From Promethearchaeota archaeon (GTDB lineage Archaea > Asgardarchaeota > Hermodarchaeia > Hermodarchaeales > Hermodarchaeaceae), in assembly GCA_048938295.1 (NCBI GenBank), contig JBHLMI010000008.1, positions 56,017-88,016 on the forward strand: 32,000 bases of DNA, given 5' to 3'. Made by a program: the position numbers and the translations under genes. Shown here in pieces: positions 9,475 to 32,000 of the stretch. Numbering within the stretch: position 1 is the stretch's first letter; each line of letters opens with the position of its first letter. The notes beneath the pieces are model-generated. The model was given only the letters and a program-made list of their open reading frames with translations, made no database searches and was not told the origin of the DNA.

Positions 9475-12400
9475 CTAGGGGCTGTCCGTGAAGCGGACAT
9501 CCTCACAAGTCGGGCACCCAGCATACAACACCTGCAGTCCTTCCAGGGATCCATCACGGAACACGGTGATGCCCTTCAACCCCAACTCATCCGCCAACAA
9601 GAATACCCGACGAATATCCTCCGTCGAAGCGTTGTTAGGCACATTAACGGTTTTGCTTACTGCATTGTCTGTGTGTTTCTGGAAGGCTGCTTGCACGCGC
9701 ACATGCCATTCAGGATCGATTTCATGAGCAGTTTTGAACAAGCGCTTGATATCGTCTGGTACACCTTCCACGTCCTGTACAGATCCCGTCGATGCCACTT
9801 CCTGCTCAACAGCTTCACACCAGAAGCCACGTTCTTCAGCAATTTCGACGAAGTATCTGTTTGTATCCGTCAAGCGGACACCTTCAGTGAGTACCCGATC
9901 ATGCACAATAGCAAACAAAGGTTCAATCCCACTACTGGTCCCCGCAATCAAGCTAATACTCCCAGTAGGGGCAATCGTGATTAGCGTTGCATTCCGCTTC
10001 CATTTCCGACGCTGCTTCAATAAATCAATGTGCTCGAAGTTACCCCGCACCTTCGCCAGTTCCGCTGACGCCCGCTCCGCACGATTCCGAATGAACTCCA
10101 TCACCTGTTCCGCTAATTCCAAGGCTTTCTCGGAATCGTATGGAATCCGCAGCTGAATGAGCATCTCCGTCCAGCCCATAATCCCAAGCCCAATCTTCCG
10201 CGTGGCTTTGGTCTGAATGGCAATCTCTTCCACCGGATACTTATTCAAATCAATAATATTATCCAAGAACCGCACCGCCAACGGAATAATTTCACCCAAC
10301 CGCTTCCAATTCACCTCACCATCCTCCACTAGGCGGGATAAGTTGATGCTACCTAACACGCACGACTCGTAAGGCAAAAGTGGTTGCTCACCACAATTTG
10401 AAACAATGATTCCTGATAGTTTTTTGTTCCCCTTTTTGCTTTCATACTCTCTAGTTATCGTGGCAAAATTATGATAGTCATCTACCGTGATGTTATAGAC
10501 ATCGGAGATTCCACAATCTTGAACCGAAGCAACTCGATGATTCAATTCAGCAATGGCAGGTTTGTTTAATGCCCTATAGGTATTGGAACAACCTCTTGAA
10601 CAACATACCTGTGGTTTTGATTTGATATACTCAATTCGCGTACCACAAACCGGACACTCGCCTTCCAAATTACTATCTTTCCACCTTTCTTTCGCAGCTA
10701 TGCTTATTTTCTCCCGAATTTCTTGATCAGCCATTACTTCATTCATTCTTTCTCGGAAAATCTTGCTAAACTTCTTGTCAGAGAATCTTCTTCGGGTTGA
10801 TTCACTAATTTTTACTCTTGTTTCATACGAGTGAATTCTGCCGAACATACCATTGTCTTCACCAGATCTCCCAACAGCCAGGTGTTCCTTAATCCAATCC
10901 TCTGGCATACGATGATAGGGATTGTTAGATCCAAGCATATCTCGTCGATGAAGCTTTCTGTGCTCATGGGATGTCATAATTTGAATATTTGCCCATGAAT
11001 TATCCAATGTATCATAGTTTATGTGATGAACAACCTCACTTCGCTTTAATTTCCGTCCAAGCATAAATTCTGCAATTATTTTATGCTCTCCACGATGAAA
11101 CACATTCTGATTTTGATGAATATGCCAATACTTGCTTTTCTTACCTCGTTGTCTGTATTGAATCTTGAAAAATGGCATTATTCGATCCCCCTCCTTCAGG
11201 CTGCCTGCTTCAACATAAGAACCGTCCCTTAGCATCACTCTATGGTTTTTAGTGAGTTTGAGAGAACTATTATCATCAAAAGTAACTTCAACAATTGGAA
11301 CTTGTTCTCTTGTTTTTCTTGGATTTCGACCCATTCTGACAACCATCCCATCGCCTGACCAACAAAAGACTGGAACACCTCTACCCTCTCGGGCAAGGTC
11401 CTCAATTGACACATAATTTCTCCCATCAGCGACGGCAATAAGCGTATCACCAGAAACACACGGATTCGTTGATTCTATTTGTTTGCCTTTGAGGGGGTGT
11501 TCGTCGTTAATGCGATCGATGAAGATCATGCCGGGGTCCCCGGTGTTCCAGGCGTTCAGGATCATAGAGTCGAAGATCATGCGAGCACTGATGGTTTGCT
11601 CGACTTCACCGGTGTGAGGGTTGATCAAGTCGATGTTCCCACCGGTTTTCAAGGCATGCATGAACTCGTGGGTGACGGCGACGGAGATGTTGAAGTTACG
11701 GAAGGATTTCTTGTCGGCTTTCGCACTAATGAACTCCATGATATCCGGATGATCACACCGCAAGATAGCCATGTTCGCACCGCGTCGCTTGCCTCCTTGT
11801 TTAATAACATCGGTAGCAGTATCATAGATGCGCATGAAGGAGACTGGACCGCTGGCGACTCCACCTGTAGATCCGACTGTTGTACCCTTTGGTCGGAGCT
11901 GAGAAAAAGAGAATCCCGTATTGTGTACTACCACAAGATGGCCATTTCCTGCTAGATAATTCTGGTTTATCGGAACAGAGAAGTCATAAAGAGTGGCACT
12001 TTCCCCTTTAATTTCTACATCTTTTACCTGAATTCTACGAAAACTGAATGGCTTATGTTTGCTTAGTCGGGGTTTCCGTTCGGTCGGGAATAAACGTCCA
12101 TAGCCTGTTGAGAAAGCAATTTCCCATCCTGTGGATCGAATACCAAAACGGGTTCTATCTCGTCTTCTAACCTTGTAATTTATTCCGATCATTGCGAGGA
12201 GGCTGGAGAGAAAGTCCTTTAGTGAGTCTGATGATGTGTAAAGACTTATCACATCTCGACCAAAGTAGCCATCTCCGTCTAATAGCCCAGCAATAAAAGA
12301 AAATGGTGCACCAGGTATGAATTGAGGAGTTAGCTTATCTTCCCCAACGATTTCGTATAAATGATAAATGAATGAATCTTTCTTTTTGGTAGTGGTTTTT

Positions 12401-13608
12401 AGAATATAGCAATTTTCTCTTGGATCTTTTTGTAGCTTCAATCGGCGTGTGTTTCTATACTTTGCAATGATTCGATTTGCTCTTTGAAGAATTTCCTGAC
12501 GTTCATCAAATAGACGTAGTCTAAGGCCATTGACTGTTATATCAAAACATCCATCAGCTATGATATATCCAATTAGCCACCAGAGACTGGCTTCCTTCTC
12601 AGTGAGTGGAACATCAAAAATCCCATTCTTCAGTAATGAATCACCTGAAACGAGCTCATCTGCACGTTTGATTTGGATTTTCTCGCCATTCCATACATAA
12701 AAAGGGTGCCAACAACTGGTTTCGATTTGTCCATTTGAACCATACGAGATTCGTACTGTTTTGTCTAAGGCGAATTTCCATCCCTGACTTACAGGTCGTT
12801 CTTCAAAGATTTGCAGTACAGGATTCCATGAATACAAGGTAATTGGAGATATTGTTTGTGGGAATCCTGTGATAGTTATATCTTTCATTCCGGGAATCTG
12901 CTCTATTTCTACTAGCCCATGTTCTTTTGTTAAGACCTTTGTTCCTTCTTTGACACACCCACCGCCAGATTTCTGAACTCGGGCCATATGCCAGAGGGTG
13001 TTGAAGATGGAGTCGATGTCGTCGCGAATTGGTAGCACAAAGCAAGCGCTGAGTTGTCCGATATCGGTGCCAGCGTTATAGAGGGTGGGGCTGTTAGGCA
13101 TGAACTCGAGGTTGGCGATCATATCATAGAAGAGCTGTTCGTAGGTTTTATAGTCGGCACTTTTATCGAAGATCTTTTCGGCTTTTGCGACTGCTTTCGC
13201 GACGCGATGGAAGAGTTGTGATGGGGTTTCGATGGGAGTACCGTCATCGTCTTTGAGGAGGTAGCGTTTGGCCACTGTGGCGGCGTTCGGTCCTAATTTC
13301 AGATCGTCGACTACCCCTACGGTGCGGAGTAGGCGTCGTGCAACGGCTCGTTTCTCGCGGTATTTGATGTAGCGCTTTGCTGTCTCAGTATAGCCGTTGA
13401 CCATTAGTACTTCTTCAACGATATCTTGGATTTCTTCAATGTGAATTGTGTCAACGTTTTTGTTCTTGATGATTTTGATAACTTTGTCTGTTAGTTTTTT
13501 TGCAGGTTTTGAATCTGCTTTATGTGATTCAAAAGCACGTCGAATGGCGTTCTCGATTTTGGTTGGATCCCAGTCAACAATACGTCCGTCACGTTTCTCA
13601 ACTTTCAC
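9475..13608 (-). CDS. nrdJ: Class II (adenosylcobalamin-dependent) ribonucleotide reductase with N-terminal ATP cone and two inteins (precursor 1377 aa, spliced 676 aa)
   Basis: ATP cone (VEKRDGRIVDWDPTKIENAI), PNSPTL, QLSACFV, GGKRRGANM, NP|CGEQ thiyl Cys, ESCVLGSINL, RKIGLGIMG, IAPTGSIS and a C-terminal CPTC. GGGAGG lies before the GTG, and there is no nrdB nearby. Confidence 0.93.
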   Translation of the reverse strand: MKVEKRDGRIVDWDPTKIENAIRRAFESHKADSKPAKKLTDKVIKIIKNKNVDTIHIEEIQDIVEEVLMVNGYTETAKRYIKYREKRAVARRLLRTVGVVDDLKLGPNAATVAKRYLLKDDDGTPIETPSQLFHRVAKAVAKAEKIFDKSADYKTYEQLFYDMIANLEFMPNSPTLYNAGTDIGQLSACFVLPIRDDIDSIFNTLWHMARVQKSGGGCVKEGTKVLTKEHGLVEIEQIPGMKDITITGFPQTISPITLYSWNPVLQIFEERPVSQGWKFALDKTVRISYGSNGQIETSCWHPFYVWNGEKIQIKRADELVSGDSLLKNGIFDVPLTEKEASLWWLIGYIIADGCFDITVNGLRLRLFDERQEILQRANRIIAKYRNTRRLKLQKDPRENCYILKTTTKKKDSFIYHLYEIVGEDKLTPQFIPGAPFSFIAGLLDGDGYFGRDVISLYTSSDSLKDFLSSLLAMIGINYKVRRRDRTRFGIRSTGWEIAFSTGYGRLFPTERKPRLSKHKPFSFRRIQVKDVEIKGESATLYDFSVPINQNYLAGNGHLVVVHNTGFSFSQLRPKGTTVGSTGGVASGPVSFMRIYDTATDVIKQGGKRRGANMAILRCDHPDIMEFISAKADKKSFRNFNISVAVTHEFMHALKTGGNIDLINPHTGEVEQTISARMIFDSMILNAWNTGDPGMIFIDRINDEHPLKGKQIESTNPCVSGDTLIAVADGRNYVSIEDLAREGRGVPVFCWSGDGMVVRMGRNPRKTREQVPIVEVTFDDNSSLKLTKNHRVMLRDGSYVEAGSLKEGDRIMPFFKIQYRQRGKKSKYWHIHQNQNVFHRGEHKIIAEFMLGRKLKRSEVVHHINYDTLDNSWANIQIMTSHEHRKLHRRDMLGSNNPYHRMPEDWIKEHLAVGRSGEDNGMFGRIHSYETRVKISESTRRRFSDKKFSKIFRERMNEVMADQEIREKISIAAKERWKDSNLEGECPVCGTRIEYIKSKPQVCCSRGCSNTYRALNKPAIAELNHRVASVQDCGISDVYNITVDDYHNFATITREYESKKGNKKLSGIIVSNCGEQPLLPYESCVLGSINLSRLVEDGEVNWKRLGEIIPLAVRFLDNIIDLNKYPVEEIAIQTKATRKIGLGIMGWTEMLIQLRIPYDSEKALELAEQVMEFIRNRAERASAELAKVRGNFEHIDLLKQRRKWKRNATLITIAPTGSISLIAGTSSGIEPLFAIVHDRVLTEGVRLTDTNRYFVEIAEERGFWCEAVEQEVASTGSVQDVEGVPDDIKRLFKTAHEIDPEWHVRVQAAFQKHTDNAVSKTVNVPNNASTEDIRRVFLLADELGLKGITVFRDGSLEGLQVLYAGCPTCEDVRFTDSP
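10396..11460 (-). mobile_element. Intein 2 (355 aa) with HNH endonuclease, NUMOD3-like motifs and a Zn finger
   Basis: Junctions ESTNP|CVSGD...GIIVSN|CGEQ. Block B is TKNH. HNH is EHKIIAE...VHHINYDTLDNSWANI...EHRKLH, followed by GEDNGMFGRIHSYETRVKISE and CPVC...CSRGC. Confidence 0.92.
11920..12957 (-). mobile_element. Intein 1 (346 aa) with LAGLIDADG homing endonuclease
   Basis: Junctions QKSGGG|CVKEG...VVVHN|TGFSF. Two LAGLIDADG helices: LIGYIIADG and FIAGLLDGDG. It is AT-rich (line 12361 has 15/60 G+C; extein line 11581 has 33/60). Confidence 0.93.
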
Positions 13609-15876: not shown

Positions 15877-16872
15877 CTAGCGTTCTTCTTGCAAGCTCTC
15901 TAGGCTCTCAATTACAACGTCACGCTGTCCCTGTCGGGTGAGGCTCCGCAGAAACGTTCCTAGCACACCCACTTCACTGACACCAAGCCGTTGCATGGCA
16001 TGAATTGTTCGTTTTTCGAAATCATCTAATGAGAGGGCTTGCGGGTCAATTCCAATGAACTCTACTAAACTCGATTCCGTCTTGACCTCCACCACCACAT
16101 CTTCATGAACGGGTTGTGGTTCGCTTGGTGGTGGAATTGGTGTGGTGTCTGGTGCGTTTACTGGTGGTGGTTCCATCGGGACCACTACTTCAGGTTCAAT
16201 AGCTGGCTCCGGTTCAGGTTCAGGCGTTACCTCAACCACTGGTTTAGGAATTGGCTCAATGTTCGGCGTAGGAGCCACAGGTTCCGGTTCTGGAACTGGC
16301 GCGGGAGCGGCAGGTTCAGCAGGTGGTGGTGTAGGCGCCTCTTCCACTTGGCCTGGCCACTTGGATCCAATAATCGTTTTTGCCATTAGAATAAATGCGT
16401 CTCCCACATTTTCGTCCATCTTCGCACTTGTCTCAACATACTGCAACCCCGCTTGCGCCGCAAAGGCCTCCGCCTCCTCACGTGACACAACACGCTGATC
16501 CAGCAAATCCGTCTTATTCCCAATCAGAATCCCTGGAATATTCCCTGCATTCTTCCGCGTCTCTTCCAGCCAACCAGCAAGGTGCTCAAAGGACGACCGA
16601 TCAATTACACTTAACACATAAATGACACCGGTTGAGCCCTGATAGAACAAGGGACGCACACCCCCAAAATGGGGTTGACCTGCCAAGTCCCAAATTTGCA
16701 ACTTGACAATTACAGTCCCAAGATCAACAGTCTTTACGGCAAAAGATGTACCAATGGTCATTTTGTATGTGTCGGTAAAGGTCCCCTGTGTATACCGGAC
16801 AATAAGACTGGTTTTACCCACGGCGCCGTCGCCAGCAACAGGGACTTTGAAGATGTAGGTCGCTTTACTCAT
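15877..16872 (-). CDS. Rab-like small GTPase with a Pro/Glu-rich linker and a C-terminal helical domain
   Basis: G1 GDGAVGKTS, G2 TIGTSF, G3 WDLAGQ, G4 NKTD and G5 ETSAK, plus KLQIW and FYQGS Rab-family-like motifs. Confidence 0.92.
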   Translation of the reverse strand: MSKATYIFKVPVAGDGAVGKTSLIVRYTQGTFTDTYKMTIGTSFAVKTVDLGTVIVKLQIWDLAGQPHFGGVRPLFYQGSTGVIYVLSVIDRSSFEHLAGWLEETRKNAGNIPGILIGNKTDLLDQRVVSREEAEAFAAQAGLQYVETSAKMDENVGDAFILMAKTIIGSKWPGQVEEAPTPPPAEPAAPAPVPEPEPVAPTPNIEPIPKPVVEVTPEPEPEPAIEPEVVVPMEPPPVNAPDTTPIPPPSEPQPVHEDVVVEVKTESSLVEFIGIDPQALSLDDFEKRTIHAMQRLGVSEVGVLGTFLRSLTRQGQRDVVIESLESLQEER

Positions 16873-21750: not shown

Positions 21751-22767
21751 ATGGAAATGGAATCAACCCCACATCGTCAGCTCTCAAGCGAAGTAACCAC
21801 AGACATGGGACGTGGTGTTCGATTCCGCTACCGGTCCATCCGATCCGCACGAGCCCAAGCCATCCTTACCATTCAACATGAGATTTCTCGGGCGTGCCGA
21901 CACGTCTTGGACAGTAAAGGATTCTTGGAAGTCCTAGCCCCAATCATTGGCCCAGTGACAGACCCAGGCATCCGAGGCGCAGGAACGATCGAAGTGCCAT
22001 TCTATGGTGAGATCTATGTGCTGATGACCAGCATGATCTTATATAAACAGATGACAGTGGCGAGTTTCCCCCGTATATACGCTTTCTCCCCCAACATCCG
22101 ACTTGAAGCATCAGCCAGCTCCACAACCGGAAGACACCTGGCTGAGTTTTATCAACTCGACTTAGAAGTGGCACACGGCTCCTGCGAAGATCTGATGACG
22201 CTGGGAGACACATTGATGTTCAAGGTCATCCACACTGTCCGAAACAAGTGCAAAAAGCAATTGACCGCACTTGGACGCACCCTTCATTTACCACCTCGAA
22301 AGCTACCACGTATCACATTTGCTGAAGCCATTGAACTCCTCCGAAGCGACGGCTTTACGCTAGATCCCAATGAAGAAATTTCATGGGAAGCCGAGTGTCA
22401 CCTATCAAATCATTTTGGTACACCCTTCTGGGTCACTGACTATCCCGCCACATCCCGAGGGTTCTATTATCTAAGGGATGCTGACCATCCTAAACTCGTC
22501 CGATCCATGGATTTGGTGTTACCCGAAGGGTATGGTGAACTCTCAAGTGGAGGGGAGCGGGAACACACTATAGAGGGGGTAGTGCAGCGGATGCGAGAAA
22601 CAGGCGAGGATCCTAAGAAGTATGGCTGGTATATGGATATGTTAAGGGAGGGAATTCCCCCTTCAGCTGGCTTTGGTATTGGAATGGAGCGATTAACCCG
22701 ATATATCGCAGGTGTTCCCCACATCTGGGAATGCTCACCCTTTCCGAAGGTGCCCGGTGTAAGCTAG
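21751..22767 (+). CDS. asnA: Archaeal asparagine synthetase A (AsnRS-like catalytic domain without anticodon-binding domain)
   Basis: LMTSMILYKQ, SPNIRLE, RHLAEFYQLDLE, ELSSGGERE and PSAGFGIGMERL. At 338 aa it has no N-terminal OB fold. Confidence 0.88.
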   Translation: MEMESTPHRQLSSEVTTDMGRGVRFRYRSIRSARAQAILTIQHEISRACRHVLDSKGFLEVLAPIIGPVTDPGIRGAGTIEVPFYGEIYVLMTSMILYKQMTVASFPRIYAFSPNIRLEASASSTTGRHLAEFYQLDLEVAHGSCEDLMTLGDTLMFKVIHTVRNKCKKQLTALGRTLHLPPRKLPRITFAEAIELLRSDGFTLDPNEEISWEAECHLSNHFGTPFWVTDYPATSRGFYYLRDADHPKLVRSMDLVLPEGYGELSSGGEREHTIEGVVQRMRETGEDPKKYGWYMDMLREGIPPSAGFGIGMERLTRYIAGVPHIWECSPFPKVPGVS

Positions 22768-23288
22768 ACTTGCGTAAATTGTGGTTTAATCAAGGAGTAG
22801 GGAGCGATGCGTTGACCACAGTGAGGACACTTCCTTTTCGATTCAACCCACAATCTCATTTCATTGGAATGGCCAGCAGTATTGCAGCGAGGGCAGGCGA
22901 GTAATGCTTGCCCCCCAGCAATGAAGCGTTGACAGATGGGGCACCGTTCTCTAGGCTCACCGCACGTTGGACAAGCGGACTCAGTTTCCTCTTCAATTAC
23001 AGCACTACAATGCAAACACAATCCACCGATAGGGCTTGACTCAGGATCAAGAATCTGAGAGGGTGTATCCTGTGATCTAGTAGTTGGAAAGCTAGACCGC
23101 CGTTGGAATGGACGGTATCGTGTCCCTCGTGATGTAGTCTGGGAACTAGATAATCCTGAAATAACTCTGCAGAGCCCACAAATGATGAGAAATACCATTA
23201 CTAAAACTATAATGCTAAAGACTAACAACCCAAATGGATTGATGGGAAATGCCTGCAAAATATGGCGTAACCTCCACTCCGCTTTCAT
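22764..23288 (-). CDS. Membrane-anchored zinc ribbon plus RING-like protein
   Basis: N-terminal TM helix; CLHC-x11-CPTC; CPIC-x12-CPRC-x4-H-x2-E-x3-W-x6-CPHC. The start may be the TTG at 23258. Confidence 0.72.
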   Translation of the reverse strand: MKAEWRLRHILQAFPINPFGLLVFSIIVLVMVFLIICGLCRVISGLSSSQTTSRGTRYRPFQRRSSFPTTRSQDTPSQILDPESSPIGGLCLHCSAVIEEETESACPTCGEPRERCPICQRFIAGGQALLACPRCNTAGHSNEMRLWVESKRKCPHCGQRIAPYSLIKPQFTQV

Positions 23289-25220: not shown

Positions 25221-26081
25221 TCAGGGTATCAGTAGCTTAGGTATCGTGATCGTGAAGAACAGTAGTAATCCGAAAATGGCGTTCCAATAGGGGTACAGCC
25301 AGTAAGCTTTTTCGATATTTGCTTTGCGATGGAGTAGCAGGTAGAGTGGAATTGCGGGATACACGAACATCAACAGGTTCCAAGGCGTATTCCAAGGGAC
25401 GATGAACACAAGTACAACAGCGAAGGTGAGCCAAAAGACAAGACAGAGAATGAGAGATGGAACAGCCCCAATATACACTGCTGTTGTGGTGACATTAGCC
25501 TCTTTATCGGCATCAATATCGGGAACGGCAGAGAACAGATGCATGGCTGATGTCCACATGAATGCTGCAAAAAGGGATAAGATAGAGGGAATAAAAAAAC
25601 GCAACTGATAGAAGGCTAAAATGGCTGGGACCACGTAAAGAAAGTTAGACATAAAATCTAGAAAAGGTCGTGCCTTGAAGCGAATCGGCTTCGCACTATA
25701 TAGAAACGAGAGCAGTAAGAAAACACCAAAGAGCGCCATGGTAATGAAGTCAGGTTGCAAGAGCATCAACACAACACCAAATGCAAACGAAACGAGGATG
25801 AAGGCGAGAAGAGTTCGGCGATCCTTTGTTGTCACCCGATATTCTTTGCCGTCTTTTTTCGGATTGAAGATGTCTGTATCCTCATCATAATAGTCATTGA
25901 TTCCATATAGGAACAAGTTGGCGGGAAACATGAAGAAGAACAACTGAAGGGCAAAGAAGGGATTCAGGAATTGGTCAAGTGTAGTCACCCCAATTGCATA
26001 ACCGATCAGGTAGGTTCCTCCCAGATATAACCAAAAACGTGGTCGTGAGATGCGAAACGCCAAACTTATCATACTACTCAT
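25221..26081 (-). CDS. lyeJ: UbiA-family prenyltransferase, lycopene elongase/hydratase (LyeJ/CrtEb-like)
   Basis: SRPRFWLY, YGINDYYDEDTDIFNPKK, YSAKPIRFKARPFLD and HLFSAVPDIDAD. It overlaps the upstream desaturase by 8 nt. Confidence 0.85.
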   Translation of the reverse strand: MSSMISLAFRISRPRFWLYLGGTYLIGYAIGVTTLDQFLNPFFALQLFFFMFPANLFLYGINDYYDEDTDIFNPKKDGKEYRVTTKDRRTLLAFILVSFAFGVVLMLLQPDFITMALFGVFLLLSFLYSAKPIRFKARPFLDFMSNFLYVVPAILAFYQLRFFIPSILSLFAAFMWTSAMHLFSAVPDIDADKEANVTTTAVYIGAVPSLILCLVFWLTFAVVLVFIVPWNTPWNLLMFVYPAIPLYLLLHRKANIEKAYWLYPYWNAIFGLLLFFTITIPKLLIP

Positions 26082-27570
26082 TCCGGTTCCGCCCCTTTTT
26101 CATCTGTGTCCTGATCTGGTCCATAACGATTTGGGAGGATACAATGGCCATGGGGACACCAATTCCTGGATGCGTATACTGTCCCGTGTAATAGAGATTG
26201 TGAACTTTTTTACTTCGATGACGGGGACGGAAGAAAGCAGATTGACGGAATGTATGCGTCAGTCCAACTGCGGTTCCCTTGTATGCGTGATAGTCTTGAG
26301 TAAAATCGTTCAAAGAGAAAATCCGCTTGATGCTTATCGAATCTTGGAATGATTCACCGATCAGCTTCTCCATGTGCGTGACGATTTTTTGAAGATAGGC
26401 TCCACGAATCCTAGGCGTATCTTCAATTCCTGGTGAGATGGGCACAGTGATGAAGATATTCTCTTTGCCTTTCGGAGCCACGAGTGGATCGTATCTGGAT
26501 GGGCAACAGACATAGTAAGCAGGCTTTTCAGGCCATGCAGGTTGCTTGAAGATTTGATCGAAATGCCGTACCCAGTCATATTCTAAGAAGACGTTATGGT
26601 GTGTCAACTGATCCAGTTTATGGTCGATACCCAGATACACTACAAAGGCGGAGGGGGCGATTATCTTCTTCTCCCAGTAGATTGCAGGATAGGTCTGATA
26701 TTGTTTGTCGAGTAACTCGATTTCGCTGTAGGGATAATCTGCATTGACAACGACAAGGTCAGTATCAATCACACCATCTGAGGTTTGAATCTGATGGGCA
26801 AGGCGATTCTTTACCGCGATTTGGGTAGCTTCAACACCAAAGTGGATTTCAGCTCCTTGCTCCTGAGCTAGCTTCGTTAATGCTTCAGGAATCTTCCCAA
26901 TCCCTCCTCGGGGGTACCAGACACCTAGATTGTAGTCAATATGTGAAATGATAGAGTACAGTGCAGGTGTGTTTTTAGGATTGCCACCCAAGAAAACGAT
27001 GGGGTACTCCAAGATTTTCCGTGCGCGATCACTTTTGAAAAACTTCTGAACGTAGCCATCGATGTTACTCAAAATATGCAACTTACGCCCCGCTTTCATG
27101 AGTGAAGGGCTGAACATGGACCAGAAACTGTCCAAGTCCTTGTACATGATACCCTGCATCATGAACTCATACGTTTCCTTGGCTTTATCCAAATATTCTT
27201 GGAGTTTTGCAGCCCCGCCTTCTTCAAAGCCTTCGAAGGTCTTTAGGTTTGACTCCAAATCTGCCGTGATTTCCACAATGTCATCTGCACCGAAGAAAAT
27301 TCGGTAATTTGGATCCAGTCGCATCAGTTCGTAGTAATCAGCTACAGTTTTATCGAACTCGTTAAAAAAATTCTCAAAAATCTCTGGCATCAGATACCAG
27401 GAAGGCCCCATATCGAACACAAATCCTTCTGTTTCCCAAACACGAGCTCGACCTCCAGGTTCTGGGTTGCGCTCTATGACATCAACTGTGTACCCTTCTT
27501 TCGCGAGCAGTGCTGCAACCGCTAGCCCACCAACACCAGCACCAATAACCAGCACATTCTCAGGTTTCAC
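26074..27570 (-). CDS. Phytoene desaturase family oxidoreductase, probable carotenoid 3,4-desaturase (CrtD-like)
   Basis: IGAGVGGL, FDMGPSWY and YYTGQYTHPGIGVPMAIVS. Its position directly before lyeJ matches the haloarchaeal crtD-lyeJ order. Confidence 0.85.
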   Translation of the reverse strand: MKPENVLVIGAGVGGLAVAALLAKEGYTVDVIERNPEPGGRARVWETEGFVFDMGPSWYLMPEIFENFFNEFDKTVADYYELMRLDPNYRIFFGADDIVEITADLESNLKTFEGFEEGGAAKLQEYLDKAKETYEFMMQGIMYKDLDSFWSMFSPSLMKAGRKLHILSNIDGYVQKFFKSDRARKILEYPIVFLGGNPKNTPALYSIISHIDYNLGVWYPRGGIGKIPEALTKLAQEQGAEIHFGVEATQIAVKNRLAHQIQTSDGVIDTDLVVVNADYPYSEIELLDKQYQTYPAIYWEKKIIAPSAFVVYLGIDHKLDQLTHHNVFLEYDWVRHFDQIFKQPAWPEKPAYYVCCPSRYDPLVAPKGKENIFITVPISPGIEDTPRIRGAYLQKIVTHMEKLIGESFQDSISIKRIFSLNDFTQDYHAYKGTAVGLTHTFRQSAFFRPRHRSKKVHNLYYTGQYTHPGIGVPMAIVSSQIVMDQIRTQMKKGRNRNE

Positions 27571-27612
27571 GTTTGGCCTCTCCTTGATAATGCGCCATTT
27601 CTTTTTGTTTTA

Positions 27613-27648
27613 TTTAATGATTGTGCATTAATATAGTAAATCATTAAA
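27613..27648. promoter_or_regulatory. Inverted repeat TTTAATGATT-N16-AATCATTAAA in the divergent crt promoter region
   Basis: Perfect 10-bp arms at 27613-27622 and 27639-27648. Confidence 0.4.
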
Positions 27649-27771
27649 CATTTAACAGATAGCTATATGAATTATATACTACCGATAGGAAAAGAGAATC
27701 GTTTAAAAGGAATTTCAATGGCTCATGGATTAAATTAACTCCGTTAAGAAGCCAATTGGAGCGTTTACTAA

Positions 27772-28725
27772 ATGTTAAGGGGAGAACAGCACCACCTGAA
27801 TATCGTTCCCACCCAAGTCCGAGTCAAAGATAATTTGACTATCGGTGATTTGAACCGAGCCTACGATTATTGCATGGGACTCTTCGCAAAGTATGCAAAA
27901 TCCTTTCATTTCGCCTCACGCTATCTGGAACCAGAACAGCAACGGAGTATCGCCGCTCTGTATGCGTTTTGCCGAATTACCGACGATTATGTCGATGAAG
28001 TTAATCTTGAACCAGACCAAATAAACACCGAAATGCGAATATTAGGCGAGATTGTCTCACGCTTAGGCAATGGAGAGCAGTTTAACCACCCGGTTTTTCA
28101 TGCCTTTGGGGACACATTAGTGAAGTATAGAATCCCAGTTCAATACATCTATGAATTGATTGAAGGCGTTCGCATGGACGTGCTTCGCCAAGAAATCCAA
28201 ACACAAGAAGAATTGAACCTTTACTGTTTCCGCGTGGCATCCACCGTTGGGTTATCAATGTGCCATATCTGGCGTGCGATTCACCCTGAAACTCTTGAGC
28301 GTGCTGCTGAACTAGGTATCGCCATGCAACAAACCAATATCCTCAGAGACATCGCTCAAGACTATGGTAAGGGACGCATTTACATTCCTGTCGAGACACG
28401 TAAGAAATTCCGAATCCGAATTGAAGACTTCGAAGCACGAACAATCACTCCGAATTTTCGAAATTTAATAAAACACGAAATCGCCAATGCTCGCGCAAAT
28501 TATGCAAGTGCCGAAATTGGTATGCAAGATCTTCCGCCCGCTGCATCCTTCACAGTTAAAGTTGCCTCGCGCGTATACGGAAATATCCTCAATGCAATTG
28601 AAAAGATGAATTATCAGGTTTTCAAACGACGTGCCTATGTGCCAAAATGGAAGAAGTTCTGGATTGCGCTTCAATGTCGACGTGAATATCTTCGCGATCT
28701 GAAACAATTTGTGGTAAACCCTTAA
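27772..28725 (+). CDS. crtB: Phytoene synthase
   Basis: KSFHFAS, LYAFCRITDDYVD, YCFRVASTVG and QTNILRDIAQDYGKGRIYIP. Confidence 0.93.
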   Translation: MLRGEQHHLNIVPTQVRVKDNLTIGDLNRAYDYCMGLFAKYAKSFHFASRYLEPEQQRSIAALYAFCRITDDYVDEVNLEPDQINTEMRILGEIVSRLGNGEQFNHPVFHAFGDTLVKYRIPVQYIYELIEGVRMDVLRQEIQTQEELNLYCFRVASTVGLSMCHIWRAIHPETLERAAELGIAMQQTNILRDIAQDYGKGRIYIPVETRKKFRIRIEDFEARTITPNFRNLIKHEIANARANYASAEIGMQDLPPAASFTVKVASRVYGNILNAIEKMNYQVFKRRAYVPKWKKFWIALQCRREYLRDLKQFVVNP

Positions 28726-28766
28726 TCGCAGAGCATTTACAGAATTGGAATATCTTAGGTGAAAGA

Positions 28767-30275
28767 ATGATGAAACCGGTTAATGCTACTCAAACGATTG
28801 TTATTGGGGGAGGATTTGGTGGCTTATCTACTGCAGTGAGACTCCAAGCTGCAGGGTACCCTGTCATAATATTGGAGAAACGTAACCAACTAGGGGGACG
28901 AGCAGGAGTTATTGAGAGAGAAGGGTTCAGGTTTGATACAGGCCCAACAATAATTACCCCTCCATCTGTGGTAGAAGATATTTTTCGAGATGCTGGGCGA
29001 AATCCTTCAGATTATGTTGAACTGGTTTCAATTCATCCACACTACCGCCTACATTTTACTGATGGCACACATTTTGACATCGGAACCTTTGAGGAAGTCG
29101 CAGAGCACATTAAACAGTTGAGTCCGAACGATTTGGTTGGGTATCAAAAATGGCTCAAAATCCTTGAACCCATCTATGAACTTGGTTTTGAAAAATTTGC
29201 TACTACACCTTTTGAAAGTCTATGGAGTATGGTGAAGATCATTCCACCTGCGATTCACCTGAAATCCTACAAGAGTGTCTATGGACTTGTTGCGCACTAT
29301 ATGCATGATGAAAAGCTCCGAATGGCTTTATCGTTTGTTCCTCTATTTATCGGGGGAAACCCATTCACTACTACTAGTGTTTATTCGCTGATTGCATATC
29401 TTGAAAATAAGTTTGGTGTGCTTTGGGTGCGAGGTGGAACCCACAGATTAGTTGAAGCCCTAGAAAGATTATTCCTTGAACTGGGAGGAACTATCCAACT
29501 AGATGCTGAAGTAACAAAAATCGAAATCGATGATAAAAACCGGAATGTAACTGGTGCTCTCACTACCGATGGAATCTTTTATCCTGCAGAAATTGTTGTG
29601 AGTAATGCCGATGTGGCAATGACATACATGGGTATGATCAATAAGCGATATCGTAGGAAAAACACTGACAGGCGATTCAAAAACGCTAAGTATAGTATGA
29701 GTCTTTTCATGGTGTATTTTGGGACAAAGAAGAAATATCCTGAAATGCCCCATCATAATGTAATCTTTGGCCCTCGATACAAGGAACTCATCAAGGATAT
29801 TTTTGACCGCCATATTCTTCCTGATGACTTTTCCATTTACTTGCATGTCCCTACTCGGACAGACCCTGAATTAGCCCCACCTGGATGTGAAACCTTTTAT
29901 GCATGTATACCCGTGACCCATCAAGATTCGGGCATTGATTGGGAAGAAATGAAGATCCCTTTCAGAGACCGAGTTCTACAGTATCTTAATGACAATTATC
30001 TTCCAGACCTGCTGAAAAATATTGTAGTGTGTGAGGTTTTCACTCCAAAGGATTTTGAAAGTGAACTAAACGCGTACAAAGGTAATGCATTTCAGTTACA
30101 ACCGCTAATGACTCAATCAGGTTGGTTTAGGCCACACAATCGATCCCGGGATATCAAAGGATTATATATCGTCGGTGCCGGAACACATCCTGGAGCTGGA
30201 GTGCCAAGTGTTTTACTCAGCGGAAAAATAACATCAGATTTGATCCTCAAAGATTACAAAATCACCTTAGATTAA
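28767..30275 (+). CDS. crtI: Phytoene desaturase
   Basis: IGGGFGGL, FDTGPTIIT, GGNPFTTTSVY, HHNVIFGPRY, FRPHNR and GAGTHPGAGVPSVL. Confidence 0.92.
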   Translation: MMKPVNATQTIVIGGGFGGLSTAVRLQAAGYPVIILEKRNQLGGRAGVIEREGFRFDTGPTIITPPSVVEDIFRDAGRNPSDYVELVSIHPHYRLHFTDGTHFDIGTFEEVAEHIKQLSPNDLVGYQKWLKILEPIYELGFEKFATTPFESLWSMVKIIPPAIHLKSYKSVYGLVAHYMHDEKLRMALSFVPLFIGGNPFTTTSVYSLIAYLENKFGVLWVRGGTHRLVEALERLFLELGGTIQLDAEVTKIEIDDKNRNVTGALTTDGIFYPAEIVVSNADVAMTYMGMINKRYRRKNTDRRFKNAKYSMSLFMVYFGTKKKYPEMPHHNVIFGPRYKELIKDIFDRHILPDDFSIYLHVPTRTDPELAPPGCETFYACIPVTHQDSGIDWEEMKIPFRDRVLQYLNDNYLPDLLKNIVVCEVFTPKDFESELNAYKGNAFQLQPLMTQSGWFRPHNRSRDIKGLYIVGAGTHPGAGVPSVLLSGKITSDLILKDYKITLD

Positions 30276-30317: not shown

Positions 30318-31436
30318 CTAGCTCTTGAATAGACTAGCTGCCAGTTCTATGGCAGAACGTGCATCTGGAGCATACCCGTCAGCCCGTACCCGTTTCCAGA
30401 GCCAAGGATCCAGGGAAAACACTCGGCCACCAACAATGATTTTCATATCCTTGAATAGGGGGTCCTTGCGGATTTTAGTGATGAGTTTCTCAGCCTCAAT
30501 TACATGCCACGGAATAGTTACCGAGATAGCCAAAAGATCAGCGTGTTGCTCTCTGATTGTTTCAATGATGGCTTGAAGGGGTGTATCGGCCCCAGTTAAG
30601 TAAACGTCCCAACCACTTAACTCAAAGAAATCTGAAACCATCCGAATCCCAAGGTCATGCAGTTCACCGGCAACACAACTAGCCACAATAGTTCGGTTCA
30701 CCCGTTCAGATGGTCGAATATACGACTGAAGGGAATTCATGATTTGCCGAGTAAGGTTAGTAATATAGTGTTCTTGTGCTACTGTTAGTTGATTTGAGTG
30801 CCAGAGTCGACCGACTTCAAGTTGGACATTTTCTAACACTTGGAGGTAAATATCCCGGACATCAACCCCACTCTTGATTGCATCATGAATGAGTTGTCGA
30901 GCTTTCGTGGATTTACCCAGAAGAAGTGCTTCAAGATACTGGGTTGCGAGCTCAGAAAGGGGAAATTCATCCCGTAGATATGATGGAATTTCTACAGCAT
31001 CTGTATCAAGTAGAGTGAGTCCAGCATTCATAAACTCCAGTAGAATTTCACGAACGGGACTAGGCGCTTTTGCTTCAAACACTTGTTTAAAGCATTGAAA
31101 GTTAATCGCGATATCTTCAACTGGTATATTGAGACCAATAAGTAGCCCTTTGACCCATTCAATGTAAGACCCAAAGAGACCTTTACTCAAATATGTGAGA
31201 GCACTACGCAGGAACTTTAAATGAAATTTTATGTCTCGTTGGTAGTAGTCAAAGCCTTGTGAACCATACCGCGCCTGGATATCAGGTTGTACCTTCGCTT
31301 GACATCTAATAATATCATGGGTTAATTGATCGATATTTCGCGCCAAGTATTCACTCGCTTCATGCCCCAGCTGTTCCAAATTAAACGCCCCATTAATTTC
31401 ATCTTGACGTTGATTTCGGGACACAAAAGTGCTCAC
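30318..31436 (-). CDS. CarH-type cobalamin-binding protein with an N-terminal globin/phycobiliprotein-like domain and no HTH
   Basis: W212-H213-x8-E222-H223 and E258-x-H260-xx-G motifs, then a Rossmann B12 domain (GADTP, AISVT, IIVGG, ADGY). The N-terminal helical domain reads RYGSQG...RDIKFHLKFL. Confidence 0.88.
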   Translation of the reverse strand: MSTFVSRNQRQDEINGAFNLEQLGHEASEYLARNIDQLTHDIIRCQAKVQPDIQARYGSQGFDYYQRDIKFHLKFLRSALTYLSKGLFGSYIEWVKGLLIGLNIPVEDIAINFQCFKQVFEAKAPSPVREILLEFMNAGLTLLDTDAVEIPSYLRDEFPLSELATQYLEALLLGKSTKARQLIHDAIKSGVDVRDIYLQVLENVQLEVGRLWHSNQLTVAQEHYITNLTRQIMNSLQSYIRPSERVNRTIVASCVAGELHDLGIRMVSDFFELSGWDVYLTGADTPLQAIIETIREQHADLLAISVTIPWHVIEAEKLITKIRKDPLFKDMKIIVGGRVFSLDPWLWKRVRADGYAPDARSAIELAASLFKS

Positions 31437-31472: not shown

Positions 31473-31949
31473 CTAATCAGGCGACCCCAGTGCTATCGTT
31501 TCTACAACATTCATCAATTTCACAATATTGAGTGGTTTCTGGGGATCCAGTGCCTGCCATCCCTCAGATTTCTCCAACCCATGGGCGGCAAGAAAATTAG
31601 TTGATAAGCGCTGCAACCCAACTTCAGCCATACGACGAATTGCTTTTTCCCGTTCAGTGGTATCATCAACGACTACAAGCTCCCCTCTAAGGACAACGAA
31701 ACAATATTGACTTAAGTCTGGTTTGAATGTCTCAATTTCGACTGCAACACGATTATCTTGTTCAATAAGCTTCATTTTCTTCCCATATCGAGTGAAATGA
31801 AAATAGAGGACTCCTTCGACATAGGCATATTGGAAAGGAGCTAGGTAGGGATAGCTTTCCCCTCTGAAGGCAATTCGACAGAACACTTGATTTTGCAGAA
31901 GCTCCTTGACCATTCGCCTCTTCAATTTGGGTAGCTTAATCAATGACAC
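31473..31949 (-). CDS. Pyridoxamine 5'-phosphate oxidase-like (NimA-type) flavin-binding protein
   Basis: CRIAF...PYLAPFQY...LYFHFTRYGKKM...VAVEI. GGTGA lies 5 nt before the GTG at 31949. Confidence 0.85.
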   Translation of the reverse strand: MSLIKLPKLKRRMVKELLQNQVFCRIAFRGESYPYLAPFQYAYVEGVLYFHFTRYGKKMKLIEQDNRVAVEIETFKPDLSQYCFVVLRGELVVVDDTTEREKAIRRMAEVGLQRLSTNFLAAHGLEKSEGWQALDPQKPLNIVKLMNVVETIALGSPD

Positions 31950-32000
31950 AATAGTCACCCTATAGATACTTGAGGAACGCCTTCTCACATATATTCGATA

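Follow-up and report, generated by a model that had tools for sequence, protein, structure and literature searches.

Within a 32,000-nucleotide stretch of DNA (the window) from a Hermodarchaeaceae archaeon (contig JBHLMI010000008.1, positions 56,017 to 88,016 of the forward strand), a minus-strand gene reported at 30318-31436 encodes what is very probably a stand-alone photocobilin of the N-terminal-photoglobin type, a sensor working through adenosylcobalamin (AdoCbl) photochemistry and protein contacts. An earlier note on this DNA had read the protein as a CarH-type photoreceptor in which the DNA-binding domain had been replaced. It belongs instead to a large family that had been described before, and of which a scan of GTDB species representatives gave at least 589 loci, spread over many bacterial phyla and several archaeal lineages and all at 45% identity or less. 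The architecture has been published as that of the photoglobin-B12 or photocobilin family, and the sensor adds no new kind of photoreceptor; what it offers is a clean natural example of the photocobilin form with the globin at the N-terminus.

The sensor protein and its cobalamin module

The photoglobin family was defined by Schneider et al., 2021 as phycocyanin-related, six-helix, non-heme globins without the X-Y hairpin (PMC8717448). The photoglobin is usually fused to two domains, B12-binding_2 plus B12-binding, which lie "either before or after" the globin; archaeal members have been reported, and two-component or one-component signalling genes adjoin photoglobin genes in almost all loci (PMC8717448). 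Zhang et al., 2024 characterised two members as photocobilins, which bind AdoCbl through W-x-EH and E/DxH (PMC10979010). SasPcob also binds biliverdin non-covalently via Asp270 and Trp296, with D270 binding the pyrrole nitrogens and W296 contacting both the biliverdin D ring and the corrin, and light converts the SasPcob dimer to a monomer (PMC10979010). Stand-alone photocobilins altered diguanylate cyclase activity in trans in vitro, and AlphaFold models predicted groups that have the AdoCbl domain at one terminus or at the other (PMC10979010).

The open reading frame of the window sensor runs for 372 codons from a GTG (372 aa, the version whose residue numbers are used here). Its homologues have their N-termini opposite residue 20, where their ATG codons, once the DNA is aligned, fall on a TTG at 31377-31379. 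The start was therefore moved to this TTG, and the true coding sequence is probably 30318-31379, giving a protein of 353 aa. Residues 1-20 of the longer version have low confidence in the full-length structure model.

Pfam places a B12-binding_2 domain at residues 164-236 (E 3e-14; 30729-30947, minus strand), a four-helix bundle, and a B12-binding Rossmann domain at residues 249-363 (E 7e-22; 30348-30692, minus strand), while no helix-turn-helix (HTH) or other DNA-binding family of any kind was matched in the protein at E <= 0.01. The residues singled out in the earlier note (W212, H213, E222, H223, E258 and H260) are all present, forming W-x9-EH, the His after the Trp, and ExHxxG (E258-L-H260-D-L-G), in which H260 is the lower axial His; the motif check and Pfam also agree with that note on the missing MerR HTH. 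Cobalamin photoreceptors have four signatures of light responsiveness, GxxW, EH, GxxH and GxxxP (PMC11796333). All four are found in the sensor, as G209-R-L-W212 and E222-H223 in the helical bundle and G257-E-L-H260 and G282-A-D-T-P286 in the Rossmann domain, and all are invariant in an alignment of 23 full-length homologues (A1).

When the protein was searched against the PDB with phmmer, the photocobilins 8J2Y, 8J2W and 8J2X came first (E 7e-23 to 7e-20), and CarH (2e-7) and the methylamine/methyltransferase corrinoid proteins ranked well behind; residues 62-146 aligned weakly with the C-terminal globin of 8J2Y. The full-length model is a single compact unit (predicted local distance difference test, pLDDT, 92; predicted template modelling score, pTM, 0.87), and its best structural matches in Foldseek are again 8J2W, 8J2X and 8J2Y, with a root-mean-square deviation (rmsd) of 1.8-2.0 A over 206-211 columns. 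Sequence, profile and fold therefore agree on the CarH-type AdoCbl module that had been proposed earlier, and the published photocobilins match it (PMC10979010). CarH/LitR of Thermus thermophilus and Myxococcus xanthus (PDB 5C8A-5C8F) share the B12-binding fold, W-x9-EH and ExH with the sensor, the window copy also has the His after the Trp, and both lie close to carotenoid genes. Unlike CarH/LitR, however, the sensor has no MerR HTH and carries an extra globin, its match to CarH is much weaker than that to the photocobilins (2e-7 vs 7e-23), and H213 is not conserved in its family.

The B12-binding fold is shared with methyltransferase corrinoid proteins, and NCBIfam returns weak matches to MtgC, MtbC and pyl_corrinoid (E 3e-20 to 3e-14), as might be seen if the protein were a methyl-carrying corrinoid protein of a methyltransferase system. 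However, the scores fall far under the curated cut-offs (72.7 vs 370; 57.9 vs 350), the W-x9-EH adenosyl pocket and the globin domain are present, the window contains no methyltransferase, and an ordinary corrinoid protein that lacks W-x9-EH is encoded separately, on contig C65. A methyl carrier is thus extremely improbable. Most clade members (P0003, P0006, P0007 and others) bear the automatic JGI name 'methanogenic corrinoid protein MtbC1', which is not supported, given NCBIfam scores well short of the cut-offs and the presence of W-x9-EH in these proteins. A supply of AdoCbl made from corrinoid is plausible in this host, because the genome encodes a CobA-type corrinoid adenosyltransferase beside a methylmalonyl-CoA mutase, and a second mutase; several other B12-binding proteins are encoded as well.

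A globin with tyrosine at the bilin-attaching position

The N-terminal domain (residues 20-145; 31002-31379, minus strand) is a six-helix, phycobiliprotein-like globin with no HTH, and not the DNA-binding fold that the earlier note had named as the finding that would speak against its proposal. The AlphaFold2 model is confident (pLDDT 90.6) and has six helices; with it, Foldseek finds smURFP and allophycocyanins at template modelling (TM) scores of 0.7-0.8. VIA-align superposes the domain on allophycocyanin with Z 17.1 and rmsd 1.8-1.9 A over 125-127 residues, and on SasPcob residues 225-345 with Z 15.3 and rmsd 2.6 A over 119 residues. A profile built from the N-terminal domains cut out of A1 (A2) matches the biliverdin-binding domain of SasPcob (8J2W/8J2X) at E 7e-8 and AbPcob at 2e-6 in the PDB, followed by dozens of allophycocyanin and phycocyanin chains. 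Searched singly, 14 of the 23 N-terminal domains match the Pfam family Phycobilisome (PF00502; best E 4e-11), and the window sensor's own domain reaches no Pfam family. Within the clade this domain is as conserved as the B12 part (57-68% vs 57-68%).

Taken together, the sensor has in common with allophycocyanin and phycocyanin subunits and smURFP the globin core fold (Z 16-17, rmsd 1.8-2.2 A, about 125 residues) and a bilin-type Arg-Asp pair, here R67-D68. It differs from phycobiliproteins in that it is not part of a phycobilisome, in the absence of the N-terminal X-Y helical hairpin (the structural alignment begins at residue 32 of the allophycocyanin chains) and in the lack of the bilin-attaching Cys. 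The segment Y65-Q66-R67-D68 aligns with C-x-R-D of phycobiliproteins and with C-x-x-D of more distant family members, so that a Tyr (Y65) stands where those distant members keep the Cys. The likeness of the N-terminus to phycobiliproteins and globins, and the replaced Cys in YYQRD, had both been proposed from the letters of the sequence, and profile, AlphaFold2, Foldseek and VIA-align all bear them out. Counted from the TTG start, the key positions match the numbering used for the photoglobin family (C46 = Y46, D49 = D49, L80 = L80; PMC8717448), with the difference that the distal Cys/Ser/Thr position is Tyr in the sensor and that no two- or one-component signalling genes lie beside it.

The closest described relatives are SasPcob (stand-alone; 8J2W dark, 8J2X light) and AbDPcob/AbPcob (8J2Y), in which, likewise, a single chain holds both a CarH-type AdoCbl module and a phycobiliprotein-like globin that lacks the Cys. 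In a hidden Markov model alignment, D68 pairs with SasPcob D270 and W94 with W296; W94 is invariant among the 23 homologues and D68 is kept in about 20 of them. SasPcob and the sensor thus have W-x9-EH, ExH, the biliverdin-contacting Asp and Trp, and the lack of an output domain in common. The sensor departs from SasPcob and AbPcob in its reversed domain order, with the globin N-terminal, in its archaeal host and in having no heme oxygenase found in the genome, and from the characterised photocobilins in its context, which is a carotenoid/photolyase island and not STAS/SpoIIE or GGDEF genes.

If the sensor behaves like the solved photocobilins and CarH, its AdoCbl-loaded form would make head-to-tail dimers in the dark; W212 and E222-H223 would pack against the adenosyl group, and the lower cobalt ligand would be H260. 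Light, green or near-ultraviolet, would break the Co-C bond, upon which the adenosyl pocket would rearrange and the oligomer change. Since there is no output domain, the signal would then be passed to another protein by contact. The globin would pack on the B12 module; with R67-D68 and W94 it may bind a linear tetrapyrrole non-covalently, or it may do no more than shield and tune the corrin. Signalling by protein contact and a possible second, non-covalent chromophore were both suggested in the earlier note; sequence, profile and fold are consistent with the two suggestions, as is the published behaviour of photocobilins (PMC10979010).

An optional member of a photoprotection island

The sensor gene lies in a conserved photoprotection island with the order schizorhodopsin-like rhodopsin, fasciclin, redoxin, (Staygreen) and photolyase on the opposite strand; PNPOx-like gene and sensor; (ferredoxin-FixC), crtI and crtB, again on the opposite strand; and crtD, lyeJ-type UbiA and (cruF). 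The six closest homologues looked up by protein (about 57-68% identity) and two whole copies from the genus survey described below all stand at this same site, which covers every close homologue with readable flanks, and the sensor gene, when present, always has the PNPOx gene on one side and the crt genes on the other. The most likely role of the sensor would be that of an optional light input to this island, with its schizorhodopsin, redoxin, photolyase, PNPOx-like and C50-carotenoid genes.

The optional nature of the sensor is evident from a survey of 40 relatives, made up of 14 congeners and 26 genomes from outside the genus. The sensor occurs in five of the 14 congeners and in none of the 26 other genomes, while CrtB is found in 12 congeners and the PNPOx-like gene in 11. 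The sensor is a cassette that may or may not occupy its fixed site in the island, an accessory light input and not a required crt regulator, because it is absent from the same site in half of the congeners that were surveyed (7/14), which keep the island; whatever it controls must work without it in these species. Congeners that have the same island with or without the sensor mean that its contribution could be read directly.

Beyond the genus, the neighbours of the 80 best of the GTDB loci (L002-L081) were clustered. In about 70 of these distant loci the next gene downstream, on the same strand, is that of a histidine kinase (or a GGDEF or REC-kinase gene), and in 32 the gene directly upstream encodes an ABM-type monooxygenase, so that the typical operon of N-terminal-photoglobin photocobilins runs from ABM monooxygenase through sensor to histidine kinase or GGDEF gene. 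The ABM protein of these operons may be an IsdG-like source of bilin. Neither a crt gene nor a PNPOx-like gene was found within 8 kb in any of the 80 loci (0/80, all at 45% identity or less), and linkage to crt and PNPOx genes is therefore specific to this genus. The expectation that homologues would co-occur with crt genes consequently holds for the crt-linked island within the genus and fails in the distant loci.

The PNPOx-like gene (31473-31958, minus strand) lies upstream of the sensor on the same strand and encodes a split-barrel protein of the Pfam family Pyridox_ox_2, of about 146-161 aa. It occupies the place that the ABM monooxygenase gene has in the distant photocobilin operons. This position and strand (as for the ABM gene in 32/80 distant loci), the conservation of the pair wherever the sensor is present and the high conservation of the protein (68-81% identity across the genus) could all be explained if it were a dedicated partner, either making bilin in place of the ABM monooxygenase or serving as the regulated output. 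There is little likelihood of this, however: the gene and the photolyase gene are divergent in every case, and the two stay side by side in the seven congeners that lack the sensor, and by sequence the protein is nearest to Nim/BH0577-type flavin proteins and not to the HugZ/HutZ heme oxygenases. Because PNPOx is kept in those seven congeners, it is not a partner dedicated to the sensor. The odds that it is a HugZ/HutZ-like heme oxygenase are likewise low, as single-sequence and profile searches (PDB, NCBIfam, ESM Atlas) gave only Nim/BH0577-type Pyridox_ox_2 relatives and the gene persists in congeners without the sensor.

Several observations weigh against the reading of the protein as a photocobilin that provides light input to this island. 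In the seven congeners without the sensor, crtI or the ferredoxin-FixC pair comes straight after the PNPOx gene, leaving no room for a sensor gene, and the crt cluster is kept whole. No histidine kinase or GGDEF gene was found downstream of the window sensor, and no output partner is visible there. The position of H213, the light-state ligand of CarH, varies between H, Q and M among homologues, and a bis-His light state is therefore not a feature of the family. There is biochemistry for no member of the N-terminal-photoglobin photocobilins. Finally, neither heme oxygenase (PF01126), nor ABM monooxygenase, nor ALAD was found in the genome, which is 91.6% complete, and an endogenous supply of bilin is doubtful for this reason. 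The host is apparently unable to make heme or bilins, and would be well suited to testing whether a bilin is needed by the globin in the first place.

As for a cognate kinase encoded elsewhere, the kinases downstream of the 70 distant homologues are, over the catalytic core, only 24-30% identical to the genome's own (C50 at ~39.5-40.6 kb, C49, C6 and C34), and no orthologue could be named.

The apparent lack of tetrapyrrole synthesis in this genome (ALAD, heme oxygenase and ABM monooxygenase were not found) would also suit a sensor of cobalamin status or redox state, which would report corrinoid availability or oxidation state in the dark with a globin devoid of chromophore. Salvaged corrinoid is needed for methylmalonyl-CoA mutase and radical S-adenosylmethionine enzymes, and the gene is dispensable in congeners, as such a sensor might be. 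Yet the full light-responsive signature is invariant, all the neighbours are light-related (schizorhodopsin, photolyase and carotenoid genes), and the pocket residues R67-D68 and W94 are kept, which together leave a sensor of this kind very unlikely and the photocobilin the preferred reading.

The remainder of the island in this genome is in two parts. The window ends with the end of the contig, at 31959-32000, in part of the conserved divergent promoter region between the photolyase and PNPOx genes, and the island is split by an assembly gap inside this promoter. It resumes on contig C63 of the same assembly (C63:1-2800), with the last 95 residues of the photolyase and with redoxin, fasciclin, a schizorhodopsin-like rhodopsin (best PDB match schizorhodopsin 4, E 2e-31) and a conserved protein of 152 aa. 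A Pfam search of the genome for photolyase was negative because the contig break leaves only these 95 residues, at the start of C63. Staygreen, which most relatives have, was not found here; in one relative (L084:7493-7949) it is called as two overlapping pieces (89 and 79 aa), which may be a frameshift or an assembly error.

On the other side of the sensor, the crtI-family phytoene desaturase gene (28767-30275, plus strand; Pfam, NCBIfam) is convergent with it: the crtI stop codon ends at 30275 and the sensor stop codon begins at 30318, a 42-bp spacer which accords with the tail-to-tail arrangement described previously. It is accompanied by the phytoene synthase gene crtB (27772-28725, plus strand; Pfam, NCBIfam), a CrtD/CrtID-type carotenoid desaturase gene (26074-27570, minus strand; NF058655, above cut-off) and a UbiA prenyltransferase gene of the lycopene-elongase type (25221-26081, minus strand; PRK12875, above cut-off). 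The region 25221-30275 is thus a C50-type carotenoid cluster of crtI, crtB, a CrtID-type desaturase and a lycopene-elongase-type UbiA, with no cruF. In several congeners cruF comes immediately behind the UbiA gene, and tblastn with a relative's CruF found nothing in this genome; the carotenoid end product may be bisanhydrobacterioruberin-like.

A candidate operator and regulator of the carotenoid genes

A perfect palindrome, TTAAC-N3-GTTAA (TTAACTCCGTTAA, 27735-27747), lies in the crtB/crtD intergenic region between a TATA-like box and the crtB ATG, 25 nt upstream of the latter, and is found in the same place in relatives. It also occurs about 59 nt upstream of the fasciclin-redoxin operon, both in relatives and on C63. 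The genome has nine exact copies, eight of them intergenic, as compared with 17 of 123 copies for 29 other palindromes of the same composition. Six copies (window 27735-27747, C63:1382, C50:48676, C17:41049, C23:31648 and C66:50916) lie 25-72 nt upstream of gene starts, namely those of crtB, fasciclin-redoxin, TusA-DsrE, the divergent pair ferritin/isochorismatase, a pyridoxal phosphate-dependent enzyme (Pfam PALP) and an HTH_3 gene. The motif is a candidate operator of a regulon that would combine redox, sulfur and iron genes with carotenoid genes.

The HTH_3 (XRE-type) gene (C23:31309-31620, minus strand) is divergent from a cysteine desulfurase gene and encodes a protein of 103 aa with a C-terminal CxxC-x5-CC; an exact palindrome lies 28-36 nt upstream of this gene in all 12 congeners examined. 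As judged from sequence and gene context, the Cys-rich protein is probably an autoregulated regulator of the redox/Fe-S type, and it is more likely than the photocobilin to be the direct regulator of crtBI. The palindrome and the HTH_3 gene are present in congeners with or without the sensor, which weakens the case for the photocobilin as a crt regulator. The light-regulated carotenogenesis circuit put forward in the earlier note is therefore not supported as it was stated: it rests on synteny, the gene is absent from the site in seven congeners with the whole crt cluster, and the crtB palindrome points to the Cys-rich HTH regulator. Room is left for the sensor as a light-dependent modulator of that regulator, which it may be.

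A precedent for such modulation exists in Rhodobacter, where AerR/PpaA are stand-alone B12-binding anti-repressors of CrtJ/PpsR that have no DNA-binding domain and pass on the light/B12 signal by contact. The window sensor could follow the same logic, with the differences that AerR/PpaA have no globin domain and that their partner, CrtJ, is known. In the dark it would bind a repressor of crtBI transcription, perhaps the Cys-rich HTH_3 protein, and light would release it, as with AerR and CrtJ. The invariable position of the sensor between PNPOx and the crt genes, the conserved operator-like palindrome between the TATA-like box and ATG of crtB, the protein contacts made by stand-alone photocobilins in vitro, and the existence elsewhere of an XRE-type HTH fused to this B12 module (P0050) all speak for an anti-repressor of this kind. 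However, congeners without the sensor conserve the operator and the HTH gene just as well, the regulon looks like one of redox, sulfur and iron (ferritin, cysteine desulfurase, TusA-DsrE, redoxin) and not of light, and the HTH of P0050 has no similarity to the candidate regulator, so that the P0050 fusion was discarded as a Rosetta-stone link. On balance, light-dependent anti-repression of carotenogenesis is possible but rather unlikely, and an optional light input to the island is preferred.

A fuller version would have the stand-alone photocobilin act, in some species of the genus, as a light-released anti-repressor of the Cys-rich XRE-type regulator bound to TTAAC-N3-GTTAA, adding a light input to a photo-oxidative-stress regulon of C50-carotenoid, redoxin, ferritin and sulfur-trafficking genes. 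This is distinctly unlikely; if true, archaea, and Asgard archaea in particular, would have their first light-controlled gene circuit based on B12. In either case, the island and its common operator give a concrete handle on how Asgard archaea of sunlit niches cope with light.

The Asgard origin of the DNA, supposed earlier as probable, is upheld by homologues in Hermodarchaeota and Odinarchaeota metagenome-assembled genomes and by the schizorhodopsin and Ras/Roc GTPases at the locus. The nearest named homologues of the sensor are from a Hermodarchaeota metagenome-assembled genome (one of the six looked up) and an Odinarchaeota-labelled partial homologue outside those six. Elsewhere in the window, a small GTPase of the Ras/Roc/Arf type (331 aa; 15877-16872, minus strand) and a RING/zinc-ribbon protein (22764-23288, minus strand) are eukaryote-like signatures that fit an Asgard genome. 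A ribonucleotide reductase of 1377 aa with an ATP-cone (9475-13608, minus strand) carries two intein-like insertions, one LAGLIDADG and one HNH/HINT.

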